Assembly (NCBI GenBank): GCA_024404195.1
Contig: JAKSQJ010000002.1
Location: 9,661 to 73,660 of the forward strand
DNA length: 64,000 bases
Origin: Clostridia bacterium
Lineage (GTDB): Bacteria; Bacillota; Clostridia; Oscillospirales; Acutalibacteraceae
Reading direction: 5' to 3'
In this document: positions 2,964 through 44,649 of the stretch, in pieces
How positions within the stretch are numbered: the stretch's first letter is position 1
How the letters are laid out: each line of letters begins with the position of its first letter
Position numbers and translations under genes: made by a program
The notes under the pieces: model-generated
What the model was told of the DNA's origin: nothing
The model's database searches: none
The model's input: only the letters and a program-made list of their open reading frames with translations

Positions 2964-4193
2964 TTAATTGTTCTTCAAAAGGTCAAGGGCTTCAATATAA
3001 ACGCCGGCGGTCCAGCCCATCATGGAAGGCATTGTCTTATGTCCGTCAGAGCTTTCGTCGGCAATATCTATACCGCCCGTTACAACATTGTATTTTTCCC
3101 AAAGGTTGCCGGTTTTTTCAAAGTTTCTTTCAATTAAATCAACATATTTTTTGGCAACTCTTTTTGCGTCCTCAACATAGCCGTAACGAAGCAAACCGTT
3201 ATAAACAAGGTTTTGCATCGGAGACCAGCCGTTCGGATACTGCCACTGATATGTATAACGGTCGGCGTCATACATTTTTTCGGTAACGGCAATACCGTAA
3301 TCGGTTTCAAGACGGTGAAGATTATCTTTAAGCGCCTTTGCCTGCTCGTCGTTAAGCATACCGAGTGTCATAGCATAAAAGCTTGCGCAGGTAAACTTAT
3401 CGCTTATTACATCATTTTTGAAGTCATAATCATAAAAAATGCCGTCTTTAAGCATATATTTTGTCATAAGCGCCTTGCGGTTTTCGGCTTTCTTTTCCCA
3501 TTCTTCCTTACCGTCAATGCCCAAAATTCCGCAGAACTTTGCCATATTCATTTCAAAGCCGTAAAGAAGGGAATTAAGCTCAACCGAGCAGAAATCTTCA
3601 ACATGGAAATCAAAACGGGGGTTAATATCCCAGCCGCTTTCGCAAATTGCAACATACTGCCAAGCGAGTTTTTCGTCAGATATGCCGTCGGGACGGTTTC
3701 CTATTCTCTCAAGAAAACCAACATTCATTCCCTCGTCAACAGCCATTTGTCTGTTACCCGTATATTGATTAAGACCGATTGGCGACATTCTCTTTGTCAT
3801 CCAAAAGTCATACTCTTTAAGCAAAACGCCGTATGCCTTTTTAAGCCACTCTTTATCCTTTGTTGCGGTATAAACATCGTCAACCATCATGGAAAGGAAG
3901 GGGGGTTGAGAGTTATGGAGATAGTATGTTCTGTTTCCGTTTGGCATAAACCCGTATTTTTCAACAAGGAAAAACATATTTTCGGTGTTGTTTTTTGCCT
4001 GTTCCACCCAACCTTTGAGGATAAGTCCTCTGTTAAGGAAATAAGTATCCCAATAATACATCTCTTGGAAATGGTCGGAAACGGTTGGAACATTATAGGG
4101 ATTCGGAAGACCTATAAGGGTGCCGTTGTCCTCGGGATTACAGCGGATTGTTTTCGGAAAATTTTCGTTAATAAACTTTTGAATATCGGGCAT
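2964..4193 (-). CDS. Cytoplasmic trehalase, glycoside hydrolase family 37
   Basis: GH37 signatures are present: HFQEMYYWDTYF (RFxExYxWDxY type), CESGWDINPRF (catalytic ESGWD) and QWQYPNGWSPMQ (QWDxPxGW[SAP]P type). No signal peptide is visible. I prefer the ATG at 4193, preceded by AAGGGGAG, over the GTG at 4220 used by the ORF track. Confidence 0.85.
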   Translation of the reverse strand: MPDIQKFINENFPKTIRCNPEDNGTLIGLPNPYNVPTVSDHFQEMYYWDTYFLNRGLILKGWVEQAKNNTENMFFLVEKYGFMPNGNRTYYLHNSQPPFLSMMVDDVYTATKDKEWLKKAYGVLLKEYDFWMTKRMSPIGLNQYTGNRQMAVDEGMNVGFLERIGNRPDGISDEKLAWQYVAICESGWDINPRFDFHVEDFCSVELNSLLYGFEMNMAKFCGILGIDGKEEWEKKAENRKALMTKYMLKDGIFYDYDFKNDVISDKFTCASFYAMTLGMLNDEQAKALKDNLHRLETDYGIAVTEKMYDADRYTYQWQYPNGWSPMQNLVYNGLLRYGYVEDAKRVAKKYVDLIERNFEKTGNLWEKYNVVTGGIDIADESSDGHKTMPSMMGWTAGVYIEALDLLKNN

Positions 4194-4274
4194 TTGAGCG
4201 CTCCCCTTTTGTAAAATCACAGTAATATTTTAACATTACGGCTCATTATTGTCAAACAAAAGATATAAAAATAA

Positions 4275-4303
4275 TTGACAAAATGCAAAATAGGTGTTAA
4301 TAT
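4275..4303 (+). promoter_or_regulatory. SigmaA-type promoter P1 (TTGACA-17-TAATAT)
   Basis: TTGACA at 4275-4280, a 17-nt spacer, and TAATAT at 4298-4303, directly upstream of T-box leader 1. Confidence 0.6.
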
Positions 4304-4309
4304 GGTTAA

Positions 4310-4590
4310 AATAATAAATGCGATGAAGATATTAAGCTTTGCTTTTATTGCTTTTCAGAGAGTCGGCGGCAGGTGAAAGCCGATAGGTCAGAAGCAAGGC
4401 ATCTCACATCTGAGCAGGAAGCCGGAAATTTAAGTATGGCTTTCCGGGTGAGCCCGTAACAGCTCGGGAGCTTGTTTGAGCTTCTTTGAGAGGTTGACAC
4501 CGTGCAACAATGTGGGTGGTACCGTGGTTAATTTTTTGTTAATCATCCCGCAGAAAGTTTAGGACTTTCTGCGGATTTTTCTTTTTTCGG
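4310..4590 (+). promoter_or_regulatory. T-box riboswitch leader 1, specifier CUC (Leu)
   Basis: The K-turn is UGC-GAU-GA ... GA-GCA. The AG bulge is AGAGAG and the distal loop is GGUGAAA. The specifier loop reads CUC-A (4403-4406), followed by CAUCU-GA-GCA. The T-box sequence AAUGUGGGUGGUACCGUGG lies at 4508-4526. The terminator CCGCAGAAAGU/ACUUUCUGCGG plus a U-run lies at 4547-4587. Confidence 0.85.
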
Positions 4591-4600
4591 AGGTATTGTT

Positions 4601-5983
4601 ATGAGAAAAATTAAGATTATTGACTATTCCTTAAAAGCGCTTAGCGACAAAAACTTGCTATTCAGGGAAAAGACGGCTATTGCCGAAAATGTGGATAATT
4701 TCGGGGTTGACGCAATAGAGCTTCCCGCCGCTCAAAACATCAAGGAAGATGCCATAATTTACGGAACAATATCCTCGGTTGCTCAAAACAGTGAAATTTG
4801 TCTTCCCGTCGGCTTTGACGAGGAGAAAATCGGCGAGGTTTTTGAGTGCATAAAGAGTGCCAAAAAGCCCTGCCTTCAGGTTGCGGTCCCCGTTTCAACA
4901 ACGACCATGGAATATACCTATCACTATAAAGCCGATAAAATGCTCAAAAAGGTTGACTCCCTTGTTAAAGCGGCAAAAAAATACTGCAAAAATATAGAAT
5001 TTGTCGCAATGGATGCAACAAGAGCCGACAAAGAATATCTTACCGAAATAATAAACACCGCAAAAAACGCAGGTGCAACGGCTGCAACCGTTTGCGACGA
5101 TGCGGGAATTATGACCCCCGAAGCTTTCGGTAATTTAATAAAAACTCTTACCGAAAAATGCGACCTGCCGATATATGTTAAGGTGTCAAACGAGCTTAAT
5201 ATGGCGGTGGCATGCGCTTACTATGCCGTTCTTTGCGGTGCGAGTGGAATAAAGGCGTCCGTTTCGGGCGAAAATGAGCTGAAAACCGCCGATATCGCCG
5301 CCGTTTTGGAGGCGCAAAAGGATGCTCTTCAAATATCCTTTAATCTTAAAACAACACAGCTTAAAAACGATATCGGTAAGCTTAAAAAGGTTGTTAAAAA
5401 AGTCCCCGAAACGAGCGAAACAAGCGCTTCGGACGACGGGCTTTTAATCAGTGCCGAAAGCACGCTTGCCGACATTGAAAAGGCGGCAAAAGCATTGGGT
5501 TATGAGCTTTCGGGCGAGGACATCGGAAAGGTTTATAAATCCCTTGTTCCTTTGTTTGAAAAAAGAACAGGTGTCGGAACAAAAGAGCTTGAAGCAATAA
5601 TAGCCATCGTGGCAAATGAGGCGCCCTCAACCTACCATCTTGACACATATAATATAAATATAAGCAATGTTTCGTCGTCTATGGCAAATGTTGTGCTTAA
5701 AAAGGACGATACTTTACTTGCCGGAATTGCAACGGGCGACGGCCCTATTGATGCCGCTTTCTTGGCTATTGAGCAGGGAACGGGACTTCATTATGAGCTT
5801 GACGGCCTTGAAATTTCGGCAGTTACCGAGGGTAAAGAGGCATTGGGCTCCGCCGTTGTCCGCCTTCGCAGCGAGGGTGTTCTCTATTCGGGAACGGGAC
5901 TTTCTTCCGATATTGTCGGAGCAAGTATAAGAGCATATATCAACGCCCTTAACAAAATCGTATATGAGGAGGGACTTGCTTGA
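4601..5983 (+). CDS. LeuA/HMGL-family protein with degenerate catalytic motifs but an intact LeuA C-terminal allosteric (dimerisation) domain
   Basis: The 460-aa protein has the overall layout of 2-isopropylmalate/citramalate synthase. DTTLRDGEQ is replaced by DYSLKALSD, and the HxHxD metal motif by VKVSNELNMAV. The C-terminal segment GDGPIDAAFLAIEQ...GTGLSSDIVGASIRAYINALNKI keeps the regulatory-domain pattern. The RBS is GGAGG. Confidence 0.7.
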   Translation: MRKIKIIDYSLKALSDKNLLFREKTAIAENVDNFGVDAIELPAAQNIKEDAIIYGTISSVAQNSEICLPVGFDEEKIGEVFECIKSAKKPCLQVAVPVSTTTMEYTYHYKADKMLKKVDSLVKAAKKYCKNIEFVAMDATRADKEYLTEIINTAKNAGATAATVCDDAGIMTPEAFGNLIKTLTEKCDLPIYVKVSNELNMAVACAYYAVLCGASGIKASVSGENELKTADIAAVLEAQKDALQISFNLKTTQLKNDIGKLKKVVKKVPETSETSASDDGLLISAESTLADIEKAAKALGYELSGEDIGKVYKSLVPLFEKRTGVGTKELEAIIAIVANEAPSTYHLDTYNINISNVSSSMANVVLKKDDTLLAGIATGDGPIDAAFLAIEQGTGLHYELDGLEISAVTEGKEALGSAVVRLRSEGVLYSGTGLSSDIVGASIRAYINALNKIVYEEGLA

Positions 5984-8427
5984 AGATAGTATTCTCAACA
6001 AAAGACCATAACGAAAAGTCCTTTGTAGAGCTTTGTAATTTTACAAAATCCTATAACTGCGCCGGTTTTGAGATTTTTGACGCAAAGAGTGAACAAAAAT
6101 ATCACAGCGACAGTATTTTCAGAAATAATCTTGTAAATGCAGGTAAAAGAAAGCTCTATAACAGAGGAATTTCCATTTCGGCGATTTCCTTTCCCTATGC
6201 GGTTGAAAGGGACGATGTTACCGCCGACCAGATATTGAGTTATGTTGATTTTGCCGTTGTTTCGGGTTGCGAAAATGTTATTCTTTTTATAGAAAATGAG
6301 CCCGATATTGAAAAGTTGACGGAAAAACTCGCTTTGGCGGTAAAAAAGGCGGAGGATAACGATATTTCCGTTCTTTTTGAAACAAAAAATTACCTTTCAA
6401 ATTCAAAAAACATCCTTAAAATAATAAACCATATTTCAAGCGCCGCTTTGGGTGCCGCCTGGAATATAAGAGAAACATATTTTGAGGCAAAAGAAACCGC
6501 CGACGAAACGATAGGAATTTTAGGCGCTTATATAAAATATGTGCGTTTAGGTGACCGAAAAGACGGCGTAAATACCCTTATAGGTCAGGGAAAATTACCG
6601 TTTGACGAGTTTTTGGATGCTTTGGCTTCGCTTAATTACGATTCTTTCGTTTGCGCTCTTTGGAATGACGAAATTACTGATGCGGATATTGTTATAACGC
6701 ATTTTGTAAACTTTATTTCCAGTGTTAAAGACGAGCGGAAAAATGCTAAAAAACTCTATTATAACCGTGATAAAAGCGGAACATTTCCGTATAAAAAATA
6801 TACCGTTGTAGATAAAACTTTTCCCCAAGTTCTTGATGATATGGTGGAATGTTATCCCGACCAATATGCCTTTAAGTATTCAACCCTCCAATATAAGAGG
6901 ACTTACAGCGAATTTCGTAAAGATGTTGATAAGGTTGCGGCGGCGCTTATTTCAATAGGTGTAAAGCCGGGGCATCATGTTGCGGTTTGGGCAACCAATG
7001 TTCCCGAATGGTTTTTAACCTTCTGGGCGGCAACAAAAATCGGCGCCGTTTTGGTTACCGTTAATACCGCTTATCGCATAAACGAGATTGAATATCTTTT
7101 GAGGCAGTCGGATACCCATACCCTTGTTATGATAGAAAACTGCAAGGATATTAACTACGGCGAAATAATAAGTGAGCTTTGCCCCGAGCTTAAAACCCTT
7201 AAAGCCGGTGAGCATTTATACAGTAAAAAACTGCCCTTCCTTAAAAATGTCATTACCGTCGGCTTTGATATGGCAGGTTGCCTTAATTGGAACAAGTTTT
7301 TGCTTCGTGCCGACAGTATTCCAAAAGCGGAGGTAAACAGGCGTGCCGCTATGGTTAAGCCCGACGATGTTGCGAATATGCAATATACATCGGGAACAAC
7401 CGGCTTCCCGAAGGGCGTTATGCTTACCCACCGAAACATTATAAATAACGGCAAGATAATAGGCGACCGTATGGACCTTTCAACCGCCGAGCGCATGATG
7501 ATTCAGGTGCCGATGTTCCATTGCTTCGGAATGGTGCTTTCAATGACATCAATGATGACTCACGGCGGAACATTATCACCGCTCCCCTATTTTTCGCCGA
7601 AGTCATCTCTTGCTTGCATAAACGCCGAAAAGATTACCTGCTTTAACGGTGTTCCAACTATGTTTATTGCGATGTTCTCTCACGAGGACTTCAAAAAAAC
7701 CGATTTTTCATATATGAGAACGGGTATTATGGCAGGGTCTAACTGCCCTCCCGAGCTTATGAAAAAGGCGGCAAAGGAAATGAATATGCGAGAAATCCTT
7801 TCGGTTTACGGTCAAACCGAGGCGTCCCCCGGTTGCACTATGGGCGAGGTAAACGAGGATTTGGAGCATAGAACAGAAACCGTCGGAAGTGCTTTTCCGC
7901 TTATTGAATGCAAAATCATTGACCCCGAAACGGGCGAGGATTTGCCGAACGGTCAAAGCGGCGAATTTGTTGTCCGTGGCTTTAATGTTATGAAGGGCTA
8001 TTATAAAATGCCCGCCGCAACAAAACAGGCGATTGATAAGGAAGGTTGGCTCCATTCGGGCGACCTTTGTATGAAAACCGAGGACGGCTATTATAAGGTA
8101 ACGGGCCGTCTTAAGGATATGATTATCCGAGGCGGAGAAAACATCTATCCCCGTGAAATTGAGGAATTTTATTTAACCCATGAAAAGATAAGGGATGTTC
8201 AGGTTGTCGGCGTTAAGGACGAAAGATACGGCGAAGAAGCATGTGCATTCATTATATTAAAGGAAAACGAAACCTCAACCGAAGCCGAAATGCGAGAGTT
8301 CGGTATGAAGCATATAGCAGGTCATAAGGTCCCCCGATATTTTGTATTTACCGATAGTTTCCCGATGAACGCCGCAGGAAAAATCTTAAAATACAAAATG
8401 AAGGAAGATTTTGAGAAAAATCTTTAA
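5980..8427 (+). CDS. Fusion protein: xylose-isomerase-like TIM-barrel domain + AMP-forming acyl-CoA ligase (FadD-like)
   Basis: An 815-aa ORF. Its TTG start overlaps the upstream stop (TTGA) and has a GAGGAGG RBS. The N-terminal ~245 aa resemble sugar-phosphate isomerase/epimerase TIM barrels. The C-terminal part has AMP-binding motifs YTSGTTGFPKGVMLTH, YGQTE, SGDLCMKTEDGYYKVTGRLKD and a terminal AAGKILK. Confidence 0.8.
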   Translation: MKIVFSTKDHNEKSFVELCNFTKSYNCAGFEIFDAKSEQKYHSDSIFRNNLVNAGKRKLYNRGISISAISFPYAVERDDVTADQILSYVDFAVVSGCENVILFIENEPDIEKLTEKLALAVKKAEDNDISVLFETKNYLSNSKNILKIINHISSAALGAAWNIRETYFEAKETADETIGILGAYIKYVRLGDRKDGVNTLIGQGKLPFDEFLDALASLNYDSFVCALWNDEITDADIVITHFVNFISSVKDERKNAKKLYYNRDKSGTFPYKKYTVVDKTFPQVLDDMVECYPDQYAFKYSTLQYKRTYSEFRKDVDKVAAALISIGVKPGHHVAVWATNVPEWFLTFWAATKIGAVLVTVNTAYRINEIEYLLRQSDTHTLVMIENCKDINYGEIISELCPELKTLKAGEHLYSKKLPFLKNVITVGFDMAGCLNWNKFLLRADSIPKAEVNRRAAMVKPDDVANMQYTSGTTGFPKGVMLTHRNIINNGKIIGDRMDLSTAERMMIQVPMFHCFGMVLSMTSMMTHGGTLSPLPYFSPKSSLACINAEKITCFNGVPTMFIAMFSHEDFKKTDFSYMRTGIMAGSNCPPELMKKAAKEMNMREILSVYGQTEASPGCTMGEVNEDLEHRTETVGSAFPLIECKIIDPETGEDLPNGQSGEFVVRGFNVMKGYYKMPAATKQAIDKEGWLHSGDLCMKTEDGYYKVTGRLKDMIIRGGENIYPREIEEFYLTHEKIRDVQVVGVKDERYGEEACAFIILKENETSTEAEMREFGMKHIAGHKVPRYFVFTDSFPMNAAGKILKYKMKEDFEKNL

Positions 8428-8437
8428 AAATTACCAC

Positions 8438-8466
8438 TTGACAAGTATTGTTTCGTGTGATACAAT
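8438..8466 (+). promoter_or_regulatory. SigmaA-type promoter P2 (TTGACA-17-TACAAT)
   Basis: TTGACA at 8438-8443, a 17-nt spacer, and TACAAT at 8461-8466. It begins 10 nt after the stop of the upstream ligase. Confidence 0.6.
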
Positions 8467-8472
8467 TTATCA

Positions 8473-8752
8473 GTAAATTGAATACCTATCAAACAAAAGC
8501 TATGATGAAGACGGAAAATTTATTGTAAAGCTTTTAGAGAGTCGGGGACGGTGGAAGCCCGACAGCCGGATATTTTTTCTTATCACTTCTGAGCCGAAAG
8601 GACGAAACAGCAGTAGTTCTTTCCGTGTGGGCTACGTTAACGCATACGACTTGTTAGAGTCTGAGGGGCACAGTTTTGTGCAATTTGAGTGGTAACGCGG
8701 GTTTAATTTTTAACTCGTCTCAAGGTTTCTTGGGACGGGTTTTATTTATTTT
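8473..8752 (+). promoter_or_regulatory. T-box riboswitch leader 2, specifier AUC (Ile)
   Basis: The AG bulge is AGAGAG and the distal loop is GGUGGAA. The specifier loop reads AUC-A (8582-8585), followed by CUUCU-GA-GC. The T-box sequence CAAUUUGAGUGGUAACGCGG lies at 8681-8700. The terminator CGUCUCAAG/CUUGGGACG plus a U-rich tail lies at 8714-8752. Confidence 0.85.
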
Positions 8753-8764
8753 CGGAGGTAATTT

Positions 8765-11032
8765 ATGAGCACACAAAATCCCATGTCGCAACTTTTGGAT
8801 ATTGCTTTTCGTATTAGAGAAATGCGAGAAATTATGGGTTATTCCGTCGCCGAAATGGCGGAAAAAACCGAGGTTTCCGTTGAGCAATACGAAAATTACG
8901 AAAACTGCAAAACCGATTTGCCTTTTACATTTGTTCATAAATGCGCACTTGTTTTCGGAATTGAGCTTACCGAACTTTTAGAGGGCAGAAGCGCCAAGCT
9001 TTCTTCCTATACCGTAACAAGAAAGGGCAACGGTCAGCAAACCGCCAAGGAAGACGGTATTGATATTGCAAACTTAGCACCCGAATTCAGAAATAAAATA
9101 GCCGAGCCATACTGGGTTAAGTATGATTATTCCGAGGAGCTTCAAAATAAGCCCATTCATTTAACTAACCACAGCGGTCAGGAATTTGACCTTGTTGTTT
9201 CGGGCTCTTTGATGGTGCAGGTAGGCACAAATACCGAAATTCTTAACGAGGGCGACAGTATTTACTATAATTCTTCAACACCTCACGGTATGATAGCCGT
9301 CGGCGGAAAGGATTGCGAATTTTTGGCAGTTGTTCTTCCGGGCGAGGACGAGCAGGAGGAAACTATCCGCACAAGTATTGCCGCCGCAAAACCCTCTAAA
9401 AAGTTGCTTTGCGAAAAATTCGTTAAGACAACCGAGGACGAAAACGGCGCTTTGCAGGATATTAAATTCGTTGATACCGATAAGTTTAATTTCGGCTTTG
9501 ATGTTGTTAATGCTATCGCAAATAAATACCCCGATAAGCTTGCGATGGTGCATATTGACAGAAACAAGAGGGAAAGACAGTTTACCTTTGACGATATAAA
9601 GAGAGAGTCGGCAAGATGCGCTAACTATTTTACAACTATGGGCATCAAAAAGGGCGACAAAGTAATGCTTGTTCTCAAAAGGCATTATCAGTTCTGGTTT
9701 GCTATGGTAGCACTTCATAAAATCGGCGCCGTCGCAATTCCCGCAACATTCTTACTTAAAGAGCACGATTTTGAGTATAGATTTAATGCCGCCGAAATTT
9801 CGGCTATTGTCTGCACTGCCGACGGCGATGTTGCCGAAATTGCCGAAAAAGCCGCAAAAAAATGCAAAACCGTTAAAACCAAAATCATGGTTGGCGGAAA
9901 TAGAGACGGTTGGCACGATTTTGATAATGAATATAAGGTTTATTCAAGCCATTTCCGCAGAAGTGCCGATACTCCCTGCGGTGATGACCCTGCAATCATC
10001 TTCTTCTCCTCGGGAACAACGGGCGAGCCAAAAATGGTTGAACATTCTCATACCTATCCGTTAGGTCATTTCGTAACCGCTAAATATTGGCATTGTTGCG
10101 AAAGGGACGGTCTTCACTTCACCATTTCCGACACCGGTTGGGGTAAATCCCTTTGGGGAAAACTTTACGGACAGTGGCTTTGCGAGGGTGCCGTATTTGT
10201 TTATGACTTTGACCGCTTTGACGCTTCTGATATTTTGCCGATGTTCAAAAAGTATAATGTTACAACATTCTGCGCTCCCCCTACCATGCTTCGTATGATG
10301 GTAAAAGAAGACCTTACAAAATATGATTTTTCGTCTGTTAAGCATATGACAACCGCAGGCGAGGCGCTTAATCCCGAGGTTGCAAAGCAGTTTAAGGAAG
10401 CAACCGGACTTACGATTTATGAGGGCTTCGGTCAAACCGAAACCACCCTTACGGTTGCAAATCTTGGCGGAACAAGGACAAAAATCGGCTCAATGGGCAA
10501 ACCTTCTCCGCAATATGAAATTGACATTGTTGACCATGACGATAAGCCGGTCGCAAACGGCGAAACGGGCGAAATCGTTATAAAACTTCAAAACGGCAAC
10601 CCCGTCGGTCTTTTCAGACAATACCTAAAAGAGCCCGAAAAAACCAAAGAGGTAAGAAGAAACAACCTTTATCATACGGGCGATACCGCTTGGCGAGATG
10701 AATCGGGATATTTTTGGTATGTCGGCAGGGTTGACGATATTATTAAATCGTCAGGTTACCGTATAGGGCCGTTTGAAATTGAAAATGTTATTATGGAGCT
10801 TCCGTATGTTCTTGAATGCGGTGTTTCCGCCGAGCCCGACGAAATAAGGGGTCAGATTGTTAAGGCAAGTATCGTTTTAACAAAGGGAACAAAGCCGAGC
10901 GAAGAACTCAAAAAGGAAATCCAGAATTATGTTAAGAGCCATACTGCTCCTTATAAATATCCCCGTCTTGTTGTGTTTAAGGACGAGCTTCCGAAAACCA
11001 ATAACGGAAAAATAATGCGCAGTTTACTGTAA
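8765..11032 (+). CDS. Fusion protein: XRE-family HTH + cupin domain + medium-chain (ACSM/MacS-like) AMP-forming acyl-CoA synthetase
   Basis: A 755-aa ORF. The N-terminus (IREMREIMGYSVAEMAEKTEVSVEQYENYE) is HTH_3-like. The cupin core is HSGQEFDLVVSGSLMVQVG...GDSIYYNSSTPHGM. The synthetase part has FFSSGTTGEPKMVEHSH, EGFGQTET, YHTGDTAWRDESGYFWYVGRVDD and a terminal NNGKIMR. Confidence 0.85.
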   Translation: MSTQNPMSQLLDIAFRIREMREIMGYSVAEMAEKTEVSVEQYENYENCKTDLPFTFVHKCALVFGIELTELLEGRSAKLSSYTVTRKGNGQQTAKEDGIDIANLAPEFRNKIAEPYWVKYDYSEELQNKPIHLTNHSGQEFDLVVSGSLMVQVGTNTEILNEGDSIYYNSSTPHGMIAVGGKDCEFLAVVLPGEDEQEETIRTSIAAAKPSKKLLCEKFVKTTEDENGALQDIKFVDTDKFNFGFDVVNAIANKYPDKLAMVHIDRNKRERQFTFDDIKRESARCANYFTTMGIKKGDKVMLVLKRHYQFWFAMVALHKIGAVAIPATFLLKEHDFEYRFNAAEISAIVCTADGDVAEIAEKAAKKCKTVKTKIMVGGNRDGWHDFDNEYKVYSSHFRRSADTPCGDDPAIIFFSSGTTGEPKMVEHSHTYPLGHFVTAKYWHCCERDGLHFTISDTGWGKSLWGKLYGQWLCEGAVFVYDFDRFDASDILPMFKKYNVTTFCAPPTMLRMMVKEDLTKYDFSSVKHMTTAGEALNPEVAKQFKEATGLTIYEGFGQTETTLTVANLGGTRTKIGSMGKPSPQYEIDIVDHDDKPVANGETGEIVIKLQNGNPVGLFRQYLKEPEKTKEVRRNNLYHTGDTAWRDESGYFWYVGRVDDIIKSSGYRIGPFEIENVIMELPYVLECGVSAEPDEIRGQIVKASIVLTKGTKPSEELKKEIQNYVKSHTAPYKYPRLVVFKDELPKTNNGKIMRSLL

Positions 11033-11039
11033 AAAACTG

Positions 11040-11068
11040 TTGACAAATAGGAATTCTTGTATTATACT
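11040..11068 (+). promoter_or_regulatory. SigmaA-type promoter P3 (TTGACA-17-TATACT)
   Basis: TTGACA at 11040-11045, a 17-nt spacer, and TATACT at 11063-11068. It begins 7 nt after the upstream stop codon. Confidence 0.6.
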
Positions 11069-11074
11069 TTGAGA

Positions 11075-11356
11075 ATAAAGGCAAAGACGAAGAGGACTTT
11101 ATTATTCCGAAATTTAGAGAGATAACGGTTGGTGAAAGTTATCGGTAGGGTAATTTGGTTGTAACTTCTGAGCTGAAGGGAAGAAAGCATTTTTGCAAGT
11201 AGAGCCCTTTCGTGTAGGCTGCGTTAATGCATACGGCTTGTTAGAGCCTGAGTGGCACTTTTTTGTGCAATTTGAGTGGTACCGCGGGTGTATTTTGATA
11301 TTTTTTACGCTCGTCTCAAAGTATTAAGCTTTGGGACGGGTGTTTTTTCGTTTTTT
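11075..11356 (+). promoter_or_regulatory. T-box riboswitch leader 3, specifier GUA (Val)
   Basis: The AG bulge is AGAGAG and the distal loop is GGUGAAA. The stem AGAGG/CUUCU closes the specifier loop, which reads GUA-A (11161-11164), followed by CUUCU-GA-GC. The T-box sequence CAAUUUGAGUGGUACCGCGGG lies at 11268-11287. The terminator CGUCUCAAAG/CUUUGGGACG plus a U-run ends near 11356. The 3' half is clearly paralogous to leader 2. Confidence 0.85.
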
Positions 11357-11378
11357 GTCCCGAACAGGAGGTTATGGT

Positions 11379-13667
11379 ATGCAAGAAATAAGCAATCTTG
11401 ATTATAAAATCAAGGAAATGGCGGGGCGTATTAAAGAGCTTCGTGAAATTGAGGGCGTTTCTCCCGAAGAAATGGCTCAAAAAACCGATGTTTCCGTCAG
11501 TGAATACCTTTCCTGCGAAAGCGGAGAAAGCGACTTAAACTTTGCATTTCTTTACCGTTGCGCATTGGCGCTTAATGTCAATGTTACCGATATAATTGAG
11601 GGTCACAGTCCTACCCTTAAGGCATTTACCGTTACAAAAAAAGGCAAGGGTCAGGAAATTGCGAATGCTCACGGTATGACATATTACAATATGGCTTATG
11701 CTTTCAAAAACAGAATTGCCGAGCCGCTTTATGTTAAATCAAATTACGACGAATCAGCCCAAACGAAAGAAATTGAGCTTACAACCCATGAGGGACAGGA
11801 GCTTGATATTATAATTTCTGGTCAGCTTCGTGTTCAGATAGGTGAGCATAGCGAGGTTTTAAGCGAGGGCGACAGTGTTTACTTTAATTCCTCAACCCCC
11901 CACGGTATGATAGCCGTCGGCGGTAAGGACTGCGAGTTTTATGCCATTGTCCTTAATCCTACGGGGGAACCCATTCCCGAGCTTATTCCGACAAAGGCGA
12001 TTGAGTTTGAAAAGGAAGTAAAGCAGGATACAAGCGACAGAGTTTACCGCAAGTATGTTGATATCGTTAAAAACGATAAGGGAACACCTACATCAATTAA
12101 ATTTAAGAACACAGATAAGTTTAACTTTGCCTTTGATGTTGTTGACGAAATGGCAAACAAAAACCCGAATAAACTCGCCATGCTTCATATTGACCGCAAC
12201 GAAACAGAGAGAAGATTTACCTTCCTTGATATGAAGAAAGAGTCGGCAAGATGCGCAAACTATTTCAGTTCTTTGGGAATTAAAAAGGGCGACAGAGTTA
12301 TGCTTGTTTTAAGGCGTAATTATCAGTTTTGGCCCATAATGTTAGGCCTTAATAAGTTGGGCGCTATTGCAATTCCCGCAACAAGCCAACTTCTTCCGCA
12401 TGACCTTGAATACAGATTTGATAAGGCGGGAGTTACCTCTATTGTCTGCACTTCGGACGATAATTCCCCCGATTCCGCCGACACTGCCGCCGCTACATAC
12501 GGTAAAATGAAAAACAAGATTATCGTAGGCGGTAAAAGAGACGGTTGGAGAGAATTTGATAAAGAATATAAGCGCTTCAGCTCAACCTATGAGCGAACAA
12601 AGGATTCTCCCTGCGGCGATGACCTTCTTCTTATGTTCTTTACTTCGGGAACTTCGGGTTATCCGAAAATTGCCGCTCATAACCATAAATATCCTTTCGG
12701 ACATTTTGTTACGGCTAAATATTGGCATTGCTGCGACCCCGACGGACTTCATTTTACAATTTCCGATACGGGCTGGGCTAAGGCAATGTGGGGCAAGCTT
12801 TACGGTCAGTGGTTCTGCGAAGCCGCAACCTTTGTTTATGACTTTGACCGTTTTGATGCATCAAAGATAATGCCGATGTTCGCAAAGCATAAAATAACAA
12901 CCTTTTGCGCTCCGCCTACTATGCTTCGTATGATGATAAAGCAGGATTTATCAAATTATGATTTTTCGTCCGTTAAGCATATGACAACCGCAGGCGAGGC
13001 ACTTAACCCCGAGGTTTATAAGCAATTTAAGAATTTGACGGGACTTCATATTATTGAGGGCTTCGGTCAAAGCGAATCTACCATGATGATAGGCAATCTT
13101 CGTGGCGCTCCGCATAAAATCGGCTCAATGGGTAAACCCTGCCCGATTTATGATATTGACCTTTTGGACAGCGACGGTAACCCCGTTGCCATCGGTGAAA
13201 CGGGCGAAATTTGCGTAAATGTTAAAAACGGTGCGCCCTGCGGACTGTTTACCGGTTACTATAACGACCCCGAAAAGACCGACGAGGCAATTCACGACGG
13301 TTATTACCATACCGGCGATACCGCTTGGAAGGACGAGGACGGTTTCTATTGGTTTGTCGGCAGAGTTGACGATGTTATTAAATCATCGGGCTACCGTATA
13401 GGACCCTTTGAAATAGAAAGCGTTATTATGGAGCTTCCCTATGTTCTTGAATGCGGCGTTTCCCCCGAGCCCGATGAAATAAGGGGACAAATTGTTAAAG
13501 CAAGTATTGTTTTAACAAAGGGAACTAAGCCGACCGAGGAACTTAAAAAAGAAATCCAAAACTATGTTAAACAGCATACCGCTCCTTATAAATACCCCCG
13601 TCTTGTTGTGTTCAGAGATGAACTTCCGAAAACAACAAGCGGTAAGATAATGCGAAATAAGCTTTAA
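11379..13667 (+). CDS. Fusion protein: XRE-family HTH + cupin domain + medium-chain AMP-forming acyl-CoA synthetase (paralog of 8765..11032)
   Basis: I prefer the ATG at 11379 (RBS AGGAGG) over the TTG at 11331, which lies inside the T-box terminator. The domain order matches the upstream paralog and the C-terminal ~90 aa are nearly identical. Motifs present are FFTSGTSGYPKIAAHNH, EGFGQSES and YHTGDTAWKDEDGFYWFVGRVDD. Confidence 0.85.
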   Translation: MQEISNLDYKIKEMAGRIKELREIEGVSPEEMAQKTDVSVSEYLSCESGESDLNFAFLYRCALALNVNVTDIIEGHSPTLKAFTVTKKGKGQEIANAHGMTYYNMAYAFKNRIAEPLYVKSNYDESAQTKEIELTTHEGQELDIIISGQLRVQIGEHSEVLSEGDSVYFNSSTPHGMIAVGGKDCEFYAIVLNPTGEPIPELIPTKAIEFEKEVKQDTSDRVYRKYVDIVKNDKGTPTSIKFKNTDKFNFAFDVVDEMANKNPNKLAMLHIDRNETERRFTFLDMKKESARCANYFSSLGIKKGDRVMLVLRRNYQFWPIMLGLNKLGAIAIPATSQLLPHDLEYRFDKAGVTSIVCTSDDNSPDSADTAAATYGKMKNKIIVGGKRDGWREFDKEYKRFSSTYERTKDSPCGDDLLLMFFTSGTSGYPKIAAHNHKYPFGHFVTAKYWHCCDPDGLHFTISDTGWAKAMWGKLYGQWFCEAATFVYDFDRFDASKIMPMFAKHKITTFCAPPTMLRMMIKQDLSNYDFSSVKHMTTAGEALNPEVYKQFKNLTGLHIIEGFGQSESTMMIGNLRGAPHKIGSMGKPCPIYDIDLLDSDGNPVAIGETGEICVNVKNGAPCGLFTGYYNDPEKTDEAIHDGYYHTGDTAWKDEDGFYWFVGRVDDVIKSSGYRIGPFEIESVIMELPYVLECGVSPEPDEIRGQIVKASIVLTKGTKPTEELKKEIQNYVKQHTAPYKYPRLVVFRDELPKTTSGKIMRNKL

Positions 13668-13677
13668 GAGGGCGTTT

Positions 13678-14400
13678 ATGAAAATATCGGTTATTCAAAT
13701 GGATGTTAAGCTTAATGCTCCCGATATTAACTTTAATAAGGCGAAAAAACTTATCAAAGAAGCGGTAAGTGAGGACCCCGATGTAATCGTTTTGCCCGAA
13801 ACCTTTAATGTCGGCTTTTTTCCGAAGGATATAAAAAGGGAATTTTGCGATATTGACGGAAAAAGGGTAAAAGAAGAAATCGGAAAACTTGCAAAAGAGT
13901 ATAATGTTAATATCGTTGCCGGCTCTGTTGCGAACATAAAAAACGGTAATCTTTATAATACCGCCTATGTTTTTTCAAGGTCGGGCGAGCAAATAGCCGA
14001 ATACGATAAAATCAATTTGTTTTCGGCTATGGACGAGGATAAATACTTTAATAAGGGCGATAAAACCGTTCGTTTTTATCTTGACGGGCATCCCTGCACA
14101 CTTATTATTTGCTATGATATCCGCTTCCCCGAAATTATAAGAAAAGCAACGGCAAATGAGCCGACTGACCTTTTGTTTATCTTATCCGAATGGCCGAAAG
14201 TCAGAATAAACGAACTAACCGCTCTTGTTACCGAAAGGGCAACGGAAAACAGAATGTTTGCCGTTTGCTCAAACTCCTGCGGAAAGGCAAACGATGTAAA
14301 ATATGGCGGAAATTCGGTTATTGTTGACCCGCTCGGCAATATTCTCATAAAAGCAGAAGAAACCGAAAGCATCATAACCGCAAACTGCGATATACAATAA
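13678..14400 (+). CDS. Carbon-nitrogen hydrolase (Nit/omega-amidase, YafV/MtnU-like)
   Basis: A 240-aa ORF. The E-K-C triad context is visible: VLPETFN, YDKINLF and LIICYDIRFPE. The start lies 10 nt after the upstream stop, so the gene is co-transcribed. Confidence 0.75.
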   Translation: MKISVIQMDVKLNAPDINFNKAKKLIKEAVSEDPDVIVLPETFNVGFFPKDIKREFCDIDGKRVKEEIGKLAKEYNVNIVAGSVANIKNGNLYNTAYVFSRSGEQIAEYDKINLFSAMDEDKYFNKGDKTVRFYLDGHPCTLIICYDIRFPEIIRKATANEPTDLLFILSEWPKVRINELTALVTERATENRMFAVCSNSCGKANDVKYGGNSVIVDPLGNILIKAEETESIITANCDIQ

Positions 14401-14420
14401 ATTTTAAGTAGGAATAAACA

Positions 14421-15092
14421 ATGCGAGATTATAAGCGACTTACAATAATATGCGGACATTACGGAAGCGGTAAAACAAATATCGCCGTAAATATGGCGTT
14501 AGAGCTTTGCAAAATCCGTGAAAATGTTGCCGTTGCCGACCTTGATATTGTTAATCCTTATTTCAGAACAAAGGACAGCGAGGAAGATTTTAAGGCAAAC
14601 GGAATAAAACTTATTTGTTCGCAGTTTGCAAATACAAATCTTGATTTACCGTCGCTTCCTGCCGATTTATATTCAATAACCGATGATAAGGAAACCTCGG
14701 TTATTCTTGATATCGGCGGTGATGACAGGGGTGCTTTTGCTTTGGGCAGATTAAGCCCCGAAATAATCAAAGAAAATAACTATGATATGTATTATGTCAT
14801 CAATAAATACCGTCCCTTAACTCCCGATGCCGAGTCGGCTTATGAGATAATGCTTGAAATTGAAGCGGCTTGCGGAATTAAGTTTACGGGAATTCTCAAC
14901 AACTCAAATTTGGGCTCGCAAACTTCGGCGGAAGATGTTCTTAATTCTTTGGAGTTTGCGGATAGATTATCCGAAATTTCTTCTTTGCCTGTTAAAGCCA
15001 CCTGCATAGAAAAACGGCTTGAAGACGAGCTTAAAGATAAAATTCCAAACTTGTTTTCAATGAAATTGCAAAACAAAATAATAGACGGTTAA
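14421..15092 (+). CDS. P-loop NTPase of unknown function, UreG/HypB (G3E)-like motif pattern
   Basis: A 223-aa ORF with Walker A GHYGSGKTN, a Walker B-like VILDIGGDDRG (compare UreG ESGGDNL) and INKY at the position of NKxD. Confidence 0.5.
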   Translation: MRDYKRLTIICGHYGSGKTNIAVNMALELCKIRENVAVADLDIVNPYFRTKDSEEDFKANGIKLICSQFANTNLDLPSLPADLYSITDDKETSVILDIGGDDRGAFALGRLSPEIIKENNYDMYYVINKYRPLTPDAESAYEIMLEIEAACGIKFTGILNNSNLGSQTSAEDVLNSLEFADRLSEISSLPVKATCIEKRLEDELKDKIPNLFSMKLQNKIIDG

Positions 15093-15184
15093 TAAACCGA
15101 TTATTGTGTTAAAAATTTTGAGGACTTGACAGCGAAATGTTGCCTTAGCTCTTAAAAGTATATAAATTGAAAGGAAAGATGATT

Positions 15185-15391
15185 ATGGCTAAACTTACTT
15201 TTAAAACAGATAATTGTAAGGGCTGCGGACTTTGCGTTGATGCTTGTCCGAAAAATCTGTTGCTTTTGGCGCAGGACAAAATAAACAAAAAGGGACATCA
15301 TCCTGTTGAAATTTCAAATATGGATGAATGCATAGGTTGCGCTTCCTGCGCTGTTATGTGCCCCGACTGTATAATAAAGGTAGAAAGGTGA
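15185..15391 (+). CDS. 2-oxoacid:ferredoxin oxidoreductase delta subunit (2x[4Fe-4S] ferredoxin)
   Basis: Two CxxCxxCxxxCP motifs are present (CKGCGLCVDACP and CIGCASCAVMCP). The start is uncertain: ATG at 15185, 15179, or TTG at 15167. Confidence 0.8.
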   Translation: MAKLTFKTDNCKGCGLCVDACPKNLLLLAQDKINKKGHHPVEISNMDECIGCASCAVMCPDCIIKVER

Positions 15392-15397
15392 TAAATT

Positions 15398-16465
15398 ATG
15401 GCAGACAAGGTTCTTATGAAAGGTAACGAAGCGATAGCCGAAGCCGCTATAATCGCCGGTTGCCGTCACTATTTCGGATATCCGATTACACCGCAAACCG
15501 AGGTTGCCGCATATATGGCAAAGAAGATGCCGAAAATCGGCGGAACATTTTTGCAGGCAGAAAGCGAAATTGCGGCTATCAGTATGGTTTACGGCGTATC
15601 CTCGGCAGGATACAGAGTTATGACCTCTTCTTCATCCCCCGGAATATCCTTAAAGCAAGAGGGAATATCCTATCTTGCTGGTTCCGACCTTCCGGCACTT
15701 ATTGTTAATGTTCAAAGAGGCGGTCCCGGACTCGGCGGTATTCAACCCTCTCAGTCGGATTATTTTCAGGCAACAAAGGGCGGCGGACACGGCGACTATC
15801 ATTTGATAGTTTTGGCTCCTGCCTCCGTTCAGGAAATGGCAGAGCTAACAATAAAGGGTTTTGACCTTGCCGATAAATACAGAATGCCGACAATGCTCCT
15901 TGCCGACGGCACTATGGGACAAATGATGGAGCCGGTATCTCTTGATGAGTATTCCGACATTAAAACATTTGATAAGCCCTGGGCAACCAACGGAACAAAG
16001 ATGAACAGAGAACATAATATTACAAACTCTTTGTCGCTCGTTCCCGAAGAACTTGAACAGTTGAATATAGCAAGATATGAGCGTTATAAAATTGTTGAAG
16101 AAAACGAAACCATGTATGAAGAATACTATATGGATGATGCCGAAATCTGCATTGCGGCTTTCGGTATTGCGGCAAGAGTTTCGCTCCATGCAGTAGAAAA
16201 GGCAAGAAAAGAAGGCATAAAGGTCGGTATGATAAGACCTATAACTCTTTGGCCGTTCCCGAGCGCACCGTTCAAAAAAGCGGCTCCGCATCTTAAACAC
16301 ATTATGTCGGTAGAGCTTTCTATGGGACAGATGATAGAGGATGTTAAACTCGCTTGTGAATGTTGTTGCCCTGTAACCCTTTGCAACCGTGTCGGCGGTA
16401 TGATTCCCGACCCGTTGCAGGTTCTTGAAAGAATTAAAGAAGTCAATAAGGAGGTAAACGGATAA
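15398..16465 (+). CDS. 2-oxoacid:ferredoxin oxidoreductase alpha subunit (VorB/KorA type)
   Basis: A 355-aa ORF. The N-terminus MKGNEAIAEAAIIAGCRHYFGYPITPQTE is typical of OFOR alpha subunits. The gene is followed by coupled beta and gamma genes. Confidence 0.85.
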   Translation: MADKVLMKGNEAIAEAAIIAGCRHYFGYPITPQTEVAAYMAKKMPKIGGTFLQAESEIAAISMVYGVSSAGYRVMTSSSSPGISLKQEGISYLAGSDLPALIVNVQRGGPGLGGIQPSQSDYFQATKGGGHGDYHLIVLAPASVQEMAELTIKGFDLADKYRMPTMLLADGTMGQMMEPVSLDEYSDIKTFDKPWATNGTKMNREHNITNSLSLVPEELEQLNIARYERYKIVEENETMYEEYYMDDAEICIAAFGIAARVSLHAVEKARKEGIKVGMIRPITLWPFPSAPFKKAAPHLKHIMSVELSMGQMIEDVKLACECCCPVTLCNRVGGMIPDPLQVLERIKEVNKEVNG

Positions 16466-17229
16466 TGGTAGTATTTGAAAAACCGCACGCACTAATTGAT
16501 GTGCCGCTTCATTATTGTCCGGGTTGTACTCACGGTATAGTGCATAGATTGGTAGCCGAAGTAATAGACGAATTAGGCATTGAAGGTCAAACCATAGGTA
16601 TAGCACCTGTTGGCTGTTCCGTTATGGCTTATAATTATTTTAATTGCGATATGATAGAGGCGGCTCACGGCAGAGCACCGGCAGTTGCTACCGGCGTTAA
16701 GCGAGCAGACCCCGATAACAATATCGTATTCACCTATCAGGGTGACGGCGACTTGGCATCCATCGGAACTGCCGAAACAGTTCACGCCGCCGCAAGAAAC
16801 GAAAATATAACCATAATCTTTATAAATAACGCAATTTACGGTATGACCGGCGGTCAAATGGCTCCTACCTCGCTTCCCGGTCAGATAACCCAGACCTCTC
16901 CCTACGGCAGAGACCCGAAGCTTTGCGGTTATCCGATTAAGGTTTGCGAAATGCTTTCCGAACTTGACGGCCCCGAATATTTAGAGCGTGTTGCCGTAAA
17001 TAATGTTAAGAATGTAAGAAATGCCAAAAAAGCCATTAAAAAGGCGTTCCAAAATCAGATAGATAAAAAGGGATTTTCTCTTGTAGAGGTTATTTCAACC
17101 TGCCCGACCAACTGGGGACTTACTCCTAAAAAGGCTCTTGAATGGGTTGACGAAAAGATGATTCCGTATTATCCGCTCGGCGTTTATAAGGATAGAAGCG
17201 CCGCACAGGACGAAAAGGAGGAAGGTTAA
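16465..17229 (+). CDS. 2-oxoacid:ferredoxin oxidoreductase beta subunit (TPP-binding)
   Basis: A 254-aa ORF with YCPGCTHG and the GDGD...NNxxYGMTGGQ TPP-binding motif. It has a TAATG overlap with the alpha gene. Confidence 0.85.
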   Translation: MVVFEKPHALIDVPLHYCPGCTHGIVHRLVAEVIDELGIEGQTIGIAPVGCSVMAYNYFNCDMIEAAHGRAPAVATGVKRADPDNNIVFTYQGDGDLASIGTAETVHAAARNENITIIFINNAIYGMTGGQMAPTSLPGQITQTSPYGRDPKLCGYPIKVCEMLSELDGPEYLERVAVNNVKNVRNAKKAIKKAFQNQIDKKGFSLVEVISTCPTNWGLTPKKALEWVDEKMIPYYPLGVYKDRSAAQDEKEEG

Positions 17230-17766
17230 ATGACTTCGCAGTTTTTGTTTTCCGGTTTCGGCGGACAGGGTATCTTGTTCGCAGGTAAATTTATGTCATA
17301 TAAGGGTATGACAGACGGTAAAAATGTATCATGGCTTCCCTCTTACGGCCCCGAAATGAGAGGCGGTACCGCAAGTTGCAGCGTTGTTGTCAGAGATAAG
17401 CCTATCGGCTCGCCGATAGTTGCTTTCCCCGATACTCTTATTGCTATGAATCTTCCGTCGCTTGATAAGTTTGAAGATTCAGTTCAGGAGGGCGGAACAA
17501 TATTTATTGATTCAACCCTTGTTGAAAGAAAGGTAAAGAGGGATGATGTAAATGTTTATTACATCCCTGCTACCAAGCTTGCAAACGATAATGGTATGCC
17601 TACTCTTGCAAATATGATTATCGTAGGCAAAATTCTTAAAGTCAGAAACGAATTTAACGAGGAAAGCATTAAAGCGGCTCTCGGAAAGGTTGTTTCCGCA
17701 AAGCATGCAGATTTATTTGATGTAAACCTTAAAGCATTACAAATCGGCGCTTCTTATGAGGGCTGA
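17230..17766 (+). CDS. 2-oxoacid:ferredoxin oxidoreductase gamma subunit
   Basis: A 178-aa [15 protein letters not shown] near the N-terminus is typical of OFOR gamma subunits. The start directly abuts the beta stop. Confidence 0.85.
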
Positions 17767-17787
17767 TACTGAAAGGAAGAGTTTTTT

Positions 17788-18849: not shown

Positions 18850-18864
18850 TAGCTGAAAAGCAGT

Positions 18865-18907
18865 AAAAAACGGAGCGCAGAAAGATTTTTCTGCACTCCG
18901 TTTTTTT
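18865..18907. terminator. Bidirectional intrinsic terminator between ilvE and metH
   Basis: A 13-bp hairpin CGGAGCGCAGAAA/TTTCTGCACTCCG with one mismatch, flanked by an A-run and a T-run. Confidence 0.75.
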
Positions 18908-18914
18908 AAGGTTT

Positions 18915-40638: not shown

Positions 40639-40640
40639 TT

Positions 40641-42566: not shown

Positions 42567-42568
42567 TT

Positions 42569-44586: not shown

Positions 44587-44649
44587 AATAATACCTCTTT
44601 TCGCAATTTGTATAATTGTATGCAATTATACTCGTATATATGAATTCTG

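Follow-up and report, generated by a model that had tools for sequence, protein, structure and literature searches.

Three T-box leaders specifying leucine, isoleucine and valine precede acyl-CoA ligase genes in a gene cluster of uncultured gut and rumen Clostridia

We analysed a stretch of 64,000 nucleotides (nt) from a Clostridia bacterium of the family Acutalibacteraceae (GenBank assembly GCA_024404195.1, contig JAKSQJ010000002.1, positions 9,661 to 73,660 of the forward strand), called the window below, in which all coordinates are counted from the first letter. Between positions 4275 and 11356 the window carries three leader RNAs that are complete transcription-attenuating T-box riboswitches, each with its own promoter. 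We are highly confident that they read the codons CUC, AUC and GUA, and thus leucine, isoleucine and valine. Each leader gates a gene for an AMP-forming acyl-CoA ligase, and none gates a gene for an aminoacyl-tRNA synthetase (aaRS). It is very likely that the three T-boxes as a set control these ligases, and probable that the ligases feed a reductive carboxylation route to the branched-chain amino acids (BCAAs).

A preliminary description of the window, made from its letters, had proposed that the 3' side of Stem I follows one template in all three leaders, codon-A-(C[U/A]UCU)-GA-GC, opposite a K-turn strand, and that the codons name Leu, Ile and Val. Read directly, the template is present in each: leader 1 has CTC-A-CATCT-GA-GC-A at 4403-4416, leader 2 has ATC-A-CTTCT-GA-GC-C at 8582-8595 and leader 3 has GTA-A-CTTCT-GA-GC-T at 11161-11174. 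The T-box model RF00230 (Rfam 15) aligns to all three over its full length (model positions 1-219), with 112.4 bits for leader 1 (E = 4.8e-24), 102.6 bits for leader 2 (E = 1.6e-21) and 86.8 bits for leader 3 (E = 1.8e-19, in a focused 601-nt search). In every one of these alignments the proposed triplet occupies model positions 91-93 and the A after it position 94, at which the unpaired stretch of the specifier loop ends; then come a helix of 4 bp, UGA as the 3' strand of the K-turn, and closing G-C pairs. In leader 1 the 5' strand of the K-turn, GAUGAA (4322-4327), faces UGA at 4411-4413. The covariance-model alignment therefore returns the proposed register, and a shift of the specifier to UGU or CAC was not seen. 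The database TBDB defines the specifier as nucleotides 2-4 of the specifier bulge, counted from its 3' end (PMC7778990), a rule that picks RF00230 columns 91-93 and hence the same three triplets. These are also the dominant specifiers in TBDB, where AUC accounts for 0.99 of Ile, CUC for 0.77 of Leu, and GUA and GUC for 0.61 and 0.29 of Val specifiers.

Beyond Stem I, the RF00230 alignments cover Stem II, Stem IIA/B, Stem III and an antiterminator with a UGGU bulge. All three leaders carry AGAGAG together with a GGUGAAA or GGUGGAA distal-loop motif, in keeping with the GNUGNRA loop consensus. Their promoters (Table 1) are the top-ranked sigma-70-like sites of the plus strand within 4000-19200, and their terminators, each of which overlaps the 3' arm of the antiterminator, are the strongest on that strand. 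The first open reading frame (ORF) begins 48, 40 and 58 nt past the Rfam matches of leaders 1, 2 and 3, respectively, with a GGAGG ribosome-binding site at each.

The three leaders belong to a large set of homologues. Close relatives of the protein encoded after leader 2 number in the thousands in metagenome-assembled genomes (MAGs) of Oscillospiraceae, Ruminococcaceae and other Clostridia, and a scan of species-representative genomes with this protein yielded at least 575 confirmed relatives. For comparison we used the window and the best 80 of these at least 575 species-level loci (81 genomes); the 80 loci are mainly from gut and rumen MAGs of Acutalibacteraceae and Oscillospiraceae, some of them labelled Ruminococcus. 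A Stem I covariance model, built from the three window leaders with a structure derived from Rfam, gave 173 matches over these 81 genomes, every one of them on the gene strand, and the first gene downstream of each was classed by tblastn against the window's proteins. ATC leaders were followed by an Ile-type ligase in 79 of 79 cases and CTC leaders by a LeuA-like gene in 29 of 29. The leaders of Val-type ligases read GTA in 62 of 65 cases and GTC in the other 3, a synonymous difference that is the sole codon variation among the 173 leaders. The cluster is kept across the related loci, and leader type stays with its gene when gene order changes: the Leu module lies upstream or downstream in related loci, always with a CUC leader. 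The Leu, Ile and Val assignments made in the preliminary description thus agree with the RF00230 register, the TBDB rule and 173 homologous leaders alike.

Structural features of the leaders are conserved as well. A T-box motif with a downstream U-run is found in 173 of 173 leaders, as UGGU in 168 and as UGGC in 5; the UGGC bulge would call for either a tRNA with G73 as discriminator or a mismatch. Across 150 homologues, pairing holds in 94.1% of the cells of Stem I; column shuffles give 69.6% and slid partners 22-46%. The pairing percentages are somewhat inflated because the alignment was fitted to a model made from the window's own leaders. Compensatory double changes occur at 20 of the 21 pairs.

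The leaders also bear on how their specificities arose. Identity between leaders 2 and 3 is 69% over their length and 79% in the 3' half, compared with 50-55% between either of them and leader 1. The genes behind leaders 2 and 3 are paralogous. This points to tandem duplication of a leader together with its gene, followed by a switch of the specifier. One substitution converts AUC to GUC. The three GUC leaders of Val-type genes (L075 13393-13495, L058 2573-2674 and L071 12439-12540), which belong to the more divergent Val-type lineages and whose ligases are 63-73% identical to that of the window, are plausible intermediates in an Ile-to-Val switch of specificity. Stem I sequences group by class across species even with the codon columns masked (146 of 150). 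For T-box evolution, the cluster offers a clean natural example of specificity switching.

Leaders 2 and 3 precede genes for two paralogous proteins of about 760 residues, in each of which an XRE-type helix-turn-helix (HTH) and a cupin are fused to an AMP-forming acyl-CoA ligase with AMP-binding and C-terminal Pfam domains. The best NCBIfam match of both is MbcS (NF047394), with 449.7 and 443.7 bits, far below the equivalog cut-off of 850 bits. Among solved structures, the Ile-type ligase is closest to MacsMa (PDB 3etc, E = 1.5e-186). With MacsMa residue numbering anchored on G459-Y460-K461 = G664-Y665-R666, the pocket Trp of Acs is replaced by Gly (G556 in EGFGQTE), and the alternative pocket Trp is kept (W464 = MacsMa Trp259). 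By these sequence features, both proteins resemble the MbcS/MacsMa type of short branched-chain acyl-CoA synthetase. MacsMa favours 2-methylbutyrate (PMC10455477), and MbcS takes 2-methylbutyrate and isobutyrate (Km < 10 µM) and hardly uses isovalerate (Km > 500 µM) (PMC10026030).

The Ile- and Val-gated ligases form distinct orthologue groups. The nearest neighbour of a ligase is of the same class in 134 of 134 cases, with identities of 0.61-0.99 within a class and 0.56-0.68 between the two. A single position of the ligase domain separates the classes strictly, G460 in the Ile type against A467 in the Val type (motif SDTGW[G/A]KSLW). G460 lies four residues before W464, at a position that we take to correspond to the Val/Ile pocket residue of acetyl-CoA synthetase. 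The bulkier A467 stands in the enzyme predicted for the smaller acid, which is suggestive and fits the substrate assignment proposed below; as the only strict position in the ligase domain, it is too little to prove that the substrates differ. The other five of the six strict class-distinguishing residues (L10I, E96A, I101Y, Y116L and L214R) fall in the N-terminal HTH-cupin module, a hint that this module discriminates something class-specific. The modules (about 215 residues, encoded at 8765-9409 and 11379-12041) are absent from MbcS and MacsMa. An AlphaFold2 model of residues 1-215, computed from a 25-sequence alignment, has a mean predicted local distance difference test score (pLDDT) of 57 and is confident only for the HTH, and a PDB sequence search with the module gave only weak HTH matches, to SinR and the 434 repressor. 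One related locus, L027, is labelled Sphaerochaetaceae (a spirochaete MAG) and encodes at 4124-6690 an HTH-cupin-ligase protein with 73% identity, next to a weak Stem I match (E = 0.0011); it may be a mis-binned contig or a case of horizontal transfer.

The module behind leader 1 is built differently. Its first gene encodes a LeuA-like protein without the H-x-H metal ligands of the synthase: the window has K-V-S at this site, and 29 of 29 homologues have K/Q/A/F-x-S/N/D. Where the synthase has RDGEQ, the window and the same homologues have variable residues, and the best LeuA score, 231 bits, lies well short of the 532 bits at which a 2-isopropylmalate synthase is called. With the metal ligands and RDGEQ gone in all 29 homologues, the protein is very probably no synthase. 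It is presumably a pseudoenzyme or sensor; it retains the leucine-binding LeuA_dimer domain and may serve as a leucine-sensing regulatory subunit.

The ligase gene of this module always follows the LeuA-like gene directly, with a 4-nt overlap, and is translationally coupled to it. The Leu-gated ligase is also AMP-forming, and it is PRK12583-like and belongs to an AMP-binding subfamily different from that of the Ile- and Val-gated ligases. The poor use of isovalerate by MbcS fits such an origin of the Leu-gated ligase in another subfamily. Its N-terminal 270 or so residues (5980-6795) form a xylose-isomerase-like TIM barrel (Pfam AP_endonuc_2), for which a PDB sequence search found no relative.

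Downstream of the Val-gated ligase lie genes for a 2-oxoisovalerate:ferredoxin oxidoreductase (VOR) and a branched-chain amino acid aminotransferase, IlvE. The VorB model NF005507 scores 538.8 bits against a cut-off of 399, placing the enzyme among VORs, and the Pfam domains of the subunits are POR_N, PFOR_II, TPP_enzyme_C and POR. IlvE, a class IV aminotransferase, scores 466.9 bits with NF009897 (cut-off 307) and 387.9 bits with TIGR01123 (cut-off 250). In related loci the genes after the Val ligase are tightly packed: median gaps are 0.5-27 nt, and the VOR subunit genes overlap. Ligase, VOR and IlvE genes are closely linked in most of these loci. No strong terminator was found between the Val leader and position 18865, where the terminator that ends the cluster begins; a weak promoter-like site lies near 15167, ahead of the VOR genes. 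In 57 related loci the gene of the ParA/Mrp-like NTPase immediately precedes those of the ferredoxin and VOR, and its product may help the oxidoreductase to mature or supply it with Fe-S clusters. As for the carbon-nitrogen hydrolase, it is speculative that an omega-amidase could pull glutamine-dependent transamination forward.

Table 1. Leader elements and genes of the cluster, in window coordinates.
Feature	Position	Strand	Remarks
Promoter of leader 1	4275-4303	+	TTGACA-17-TAATAT, TG-extended; 11 nt upstream of Rfam match
T-box leader 1 (Leu)	4314-4553	+	Stem I 4314-4416; UGGU acceptor-binding bulge 4517-4520
Stem I parts of leader 1	AGAGA bulge 4357-4361; distal loop 4368-4378	+	distal loop GGCAGGUGAAA; RF00230
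Specifier CUC (Leu; anticodon GAG)	4403-4405	+	RF00230 alignment and sequence; A4406 next; CTC in 29/29 orthologous leaders
Terminator of leader 1	hairpin 4548-4574; with U-run 4548-4589	+	12-bp hairpin and U-run
LeuA-like protein	4601-5983	+	460 residues; HMGL-like barrel and LeuA_dimer regulatory domain
TIM barrel-acyl-CoA ligase fusion	5980-8427	+	candidate isovalerate-CoA ligase; PRK12583-like, below cut-off
Promoter of leader 2	8438-8466	+	TTGACA-17-TACAAT; 27 nt upstream of Rfam match
T-box leader 2 (Ile)	8493-8725	+	RF00230; UGGU bulge 8690-8693
Specifier AUC (Ile; anticodon GAU)	8582-8584	+	RF00230 alignment and sequence; A8585 next; ATC in 79/79 orthologous leaders
Terminator of leader 2	hairpin 8712-8741; with tail 8712-8757	+	13-bp hairpin and U-rich tail
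HTH(XRE)-cupin-acyl-CoA ligase, Ile-type	8765-11032	+	candidate 2-methylbutyrate-CoA ligase
Promoter of leader 3	11040-11068	+	TTGACA-17-TATACT; 7 nt upstream of Rfam match
T-box leader 3 (Val)	11075-11321	+	RF00230, sub-threshold; UGGU bulge 11277-11280
Specifier GUA (Val; anticodon UAC)	11161-11163	+	RF00230 alignment and sequence; A11164 next; GTA in 62 and GTC in 3 of 65 orthologous leaders
Terminator of leader 3	hairpin 11307-11343; with U-run 11307-11356	+	16-bp hairpin and U-run
HTH(XRE)-cupin-acyl-CoA ligase, Val-type	11379-13667	+	candidate isobutyrate-CoA ligase
Carbon-nitrogen hydrolase	13678-14400	+	nitrilase/omega-amidase/deaminated-glutathione-amidase-like; accessory, in only a few related loci
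P-loop ParA/Mrp-like NTPase	14421-15092	+	weak NUBPL/Mrp iron-sulfur carrier matches
VOR genes	15185-17766	+	2-oxoisovalerate:ferredoxin oxidoreductase
VOR ferredoxin (delta)	15185-15391	+	start 15179 or 15185; 2x[4Fe-4S]-type
VOR alpha (VorB)	15398-16465	+	
VOR beta	16465-17229	+	
VOR gamma	17230-17766	+	
Branched-chain amino acid aminotransferase	17788-18849	+	IlvE, class II; IlvE equivalog cut-offs passed
Terminator at cluster end	18865-18906	.	strong, bidirectional; 19 bp

In T-box regulation, the anticodon of an uncharged tRNA pairs with the specifier and its NCCA end with the UGGN bulge, so that the antiterminator forms and transcription reads through; a charged tRNA cannot stabilise the antiterminator, and the terminator forms. 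In the window, the AGAGA bulge and the GGUGNRA distal loop would form a platform for the tRNA elbow, and uncharged tRNA-Leu(GAG), tRNA-Ile(GAU) and tRNA-Val(UAC), the assumed partners, would pair with CUC, AUC and GUA. The free NCCA end would then pair with UGGU and stabilise the antiterminator, letting RNA polymerase enter the operon, and with charged tRNA the terminator would form within the leader. On the enzymatic side, the Leu-gated ligase is predicted to activate isovalerate, the Ile-gated ligase 2-methylbutyrate and the Val-gated ligase isobutyrate; VOR would reductively carboxylate the branched acyl-CoAs to 2-oxo acids, which IlvE would aminate to Leu, Ile and Val. Under this scheme, starvation for one BCAA would induce the activation of exactly its fatty-acid precursor.

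What suggests these substrates is the combination of enzyme chemistry and regulation. AMP-forming ligases drive the reaction from acid to acyl-CoA. In T-box surveys, the genes under T-box control are found to serve the supply of the specified amino acid (PMC2494555). Taken together, these two points make isovalerate, 2-methylbutyrate and isobutyrate the most likely substrates. From the T-box specifiers, which reliably report the amino acid served, it can thus be predicted directly which branched-chain acid is the substrate of each ligase. On balance we favour BCAA salvage from branched-chain fatty acids with this assignment of substrates, as a probable but by no means secure interpretation. 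A wider proposal is decidedly more tentative, and we regard it as possible rather than probable: that the specifier codons label the substrates of three ligases that could not otherwise be annotated; that ligases, VOR and IlvE make up a complete tRNA-gated salvage regulon in uncultured gut and rumen Oscillospirales, and with it the genetic basis of the requirement of ruminococci for branched-chain volatile fatty acids (VFAs) noted in the 1960s; and that degenerate sensor modules (the HTH-cupin module and the dead LeuA-like protein with its retained Leu-binding domain) add a second, allosteric or transcriptional layer of feedback.

Several observations weigh against salvage, or against parts of the case for it. 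Leader 3 is alone in scoring below the RF00230 gathering score of 93 bits (86.8 bits), and a whole-window scan at gathering thresholds returned leaders 1 and 2 only; the middle of its Stem I also has several non-canonical pairs in the covariance-model alignment. Orthologous Val-type leaders in other genomes reach 95.6-101.6 bits, above that score. A search of the window and 24 related loci found no tRNA gene with anticodon GAG, GAU or UAC, but only Lys-UUU, Pro-CGG, Leu-UAA and Thr-CGU; the tRNA partners and their discriminator bases are therefore assumed. The substrate assignments draw on T-box logic and on distant homology, as the MbcS scores of the Ile- and Val-gated ligases illustrate, and no characterised close relative of the Leu-gated ligase was found. 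VOR and ilvE seem to share a transcript with the Val-gated ligase and with no other, which does not account for how a cell starved of just Leu or just Ile would obtain these enzymes.

The T-boxes and their codons could be as we describe them and the ligases still serve another end, by supplying branched-chain primers for membrane fatty acids or by taking part in catabolism, with VOR and IlvE working oxidatively. VOR enzymes are reversible and often run oxidatively in amino-acid fermenters. MbcS, the only physiologically characterised relative, feeds FabH in the lipid synthesis of S. aureus (PMC10026030). However, a T-box is induced by uncharged cognate tRNA, that is, when the amino acid is scarce, and the genes so controlled serve its supply (PMC2494555); neither lipid synthesis nor catabolism would have a use for three switches on three ligases, each specific to one amino acid. 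The AMP-forming reaction from acid to acyl-CoA also runs in the wrong direction for an ATP-yielding fermentation, and ligase, VOR and IlvE genes are tightly linked in most loci. We judge lipid supply or catabolism improbable.

Far less probable is that the specifiers are read one nucleotide out, as UCU, UAU and UGU (Ser, Tyr and Cys) in the -1 frame or as UCA, UCA and UAA in the +1 frame. A U precedes all three codons in the window, and TBDB considers the -1 and +1 frames for ambiguous leaders (PMC7778990). Moreover, 23 of the 79 Ile-type leaders have C in place of the usual purine after AUC, which counts against the register that we prefer. The RF00230 specifier columns, by contrast, hold the claimed triplets, and the flanking bases of the homologues vary: the base before the codon is C in 47 and U in 32 leaders of the Ile class, and U in 22, A in 4 and C in 3 of the Leu class; the base after it is A in 56 and C in 23 of the Ile class, G in 18, A in 7 and C in 4 of the Leu class, and G in 52 and A in 13 of the Val class. 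Because of this variation, only frame 0 yields one amino acid per leader class. In the -1 frame, the Ile class would mix CAU with UAU (His/Tyr) and the Leu class UCU, ACU and CCU (Ser/Thr/Pro), and in the +1 frame the Val class would read the stops UAG and UAA. UGU, UAU and UAA have a usage of 0.00-0.01 as specifiers in TBDB, and Ser, Tyr and Cys are unrelated to the genes downstream. On the flanking bases, the stop codons in homologues and TBDB usage we reject a shifted specifier.

That the leaders are of the aaRS type (leuS, ileS, valS), or relics uncoupled from the genes behind them, is barely conceivable and is refuted by gene content: although their codons are the commonest among T-boxes generally, aaRS leaders included, the first ORFs at the short distances given above encode the LeuA-like protein and acyl-CoA ligases, no aaRS domain occurs anywhere in 4000-19000, and the pairing of leader and gene is kept in 80 other species with promoter, antiterminator and terminator intact.

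On the upstream side of the cluster, a trehalase-family glycoside hydrolase gene (2964-4220, minus strand) is divergent from leader 1, and a strong minus-strand promoter-like site, TTGACA-17-TAAAAT at 4227-4255, stands back-to-back with the leader 1 promoter. On its downstream side, genes on the minus strand at 18915-22764 converge on the cluster terminator; they encode a B12-dependent methionine synthase (794 residues), a small activation-domain ORF and methylenetetrahydrofolate reductase, and no riboswitch was found upstream of them at Rfam gathering thresholds. Further away, an operon-like set at 39490-44625 (minus strand) comprises an HMGL-type synthase without LeuA_dimer, a GntR-like regulator and two further enzymes, one isocitrate-dehydrogenase-like and the other an aconitate hydratase (967.7 bits; cut-off 612). 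These genes were considered as leuA, leuCD and leuB, and were rejected as such on their scores as aconitate hydratase and isocitrate-dehydrogenase-like; the set is probably an oxidative branch of the tricarboxylic acid cycle to 2-oxoglutarate, of the Re-citrate-synthase type. No canonical ilv or leu pathway genes were found in the 64-kb window, the only stretch examined.

With the BCAA T-box leaders known from Firmicutes and their relatives (ilv-leu, leuA and transporters of the brnQ type), the window's leaders share membership in RF00230, architecture, attenuation logic, the preferred specifiers CUC, AUC and GUA or GUC, and the principle that the specifier predicts the amino acid. A Leu/GAG T-box precedes, for example, a genuine leuA in Geobacter (PMC2700814). 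Here, in contrast, the leaders control AMP-forming ligases and a dead LeuA homologue, and three specificities are assembled in one cluster, two of them apparently through tandem duplication with a switched codon. The text and part of the supplementary table of a 2008 T-box survey contain no CoA ligase entries, the table giving amino-acid types without codons, and in the literature searched no T-box was linked to acyl-CoA ligases or to genes for the assimilation of branched-chain VFAs. The RNA elements are ordinary members of the T-box family with the commonest specifiers, in charge of an apparently undescribed regulon.

The preliminary description had likened the leaders to that of glyQS. The glyQS and tyrS leaders of B. 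subtilis do share with them the base of Stem I (codon, one base, short helix and GA/K-turn) and the UGGN-NCCA pairing. The glyQS leader lacks Stem II and Stem IIA/B and uses UGGA for a U73 discriminator, whereas the window's leaders align through Stem II and IIA/B and use UGGU. It is therefore not their best structural analogue, and the analogy with aaRS leaders holds for codon choice only.

In their ligase domains, the Ile- and Val-gated proteins are homologues of MbcS and MacsMa, and they share the pocket Gly and Trp with them. They differ in scoring about half of the equivalog cut-off, in the additional HTH-cupin module, in occurring as two specialised paralogues that are distinguished at G460/A467, and in being under T-box control, with VOR and IlvE in place of lipid synthesis as the linked functions. 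For such ligases, in widespread uncultured gut and rumen Clostridia with at least 575 relatives, the value of the leaders is as annotation evidence.

The closest parallel in physiology is the reductive carboxylation route of rumen bacteria. Carboxylation of isovalerate to Leu, of 2-methylbutyrate to Ile and of isobutyrate to Val was demonstrated isotopically in rumen bacteria, including ruminococci, by Allison and co-workers in 1962-1971, as cited in a later paper (PMC7356843). For this route, the literature searched describes neither a gene cluster nor its regulation nor any substrate-specific activating enzymes. The chemistry predicted for the window is identical, with acyl-CoA and 2-oxo acid as successive intermediates between acid and amino acid, and the host group agrees, as the related loci are largely from rumen and gut Oscillospirales. 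If our interpretation is true, it would bear on branched-chain VFA supplementation in ruminant nutrition and on the exchange of branched-chain fatty acids and BCAAs in the gut. Since Allison, the rumen route has been known only from physiology and isotopes; the window would add to it a gene cluster, candidate activating enzymes and a mode of regulation.

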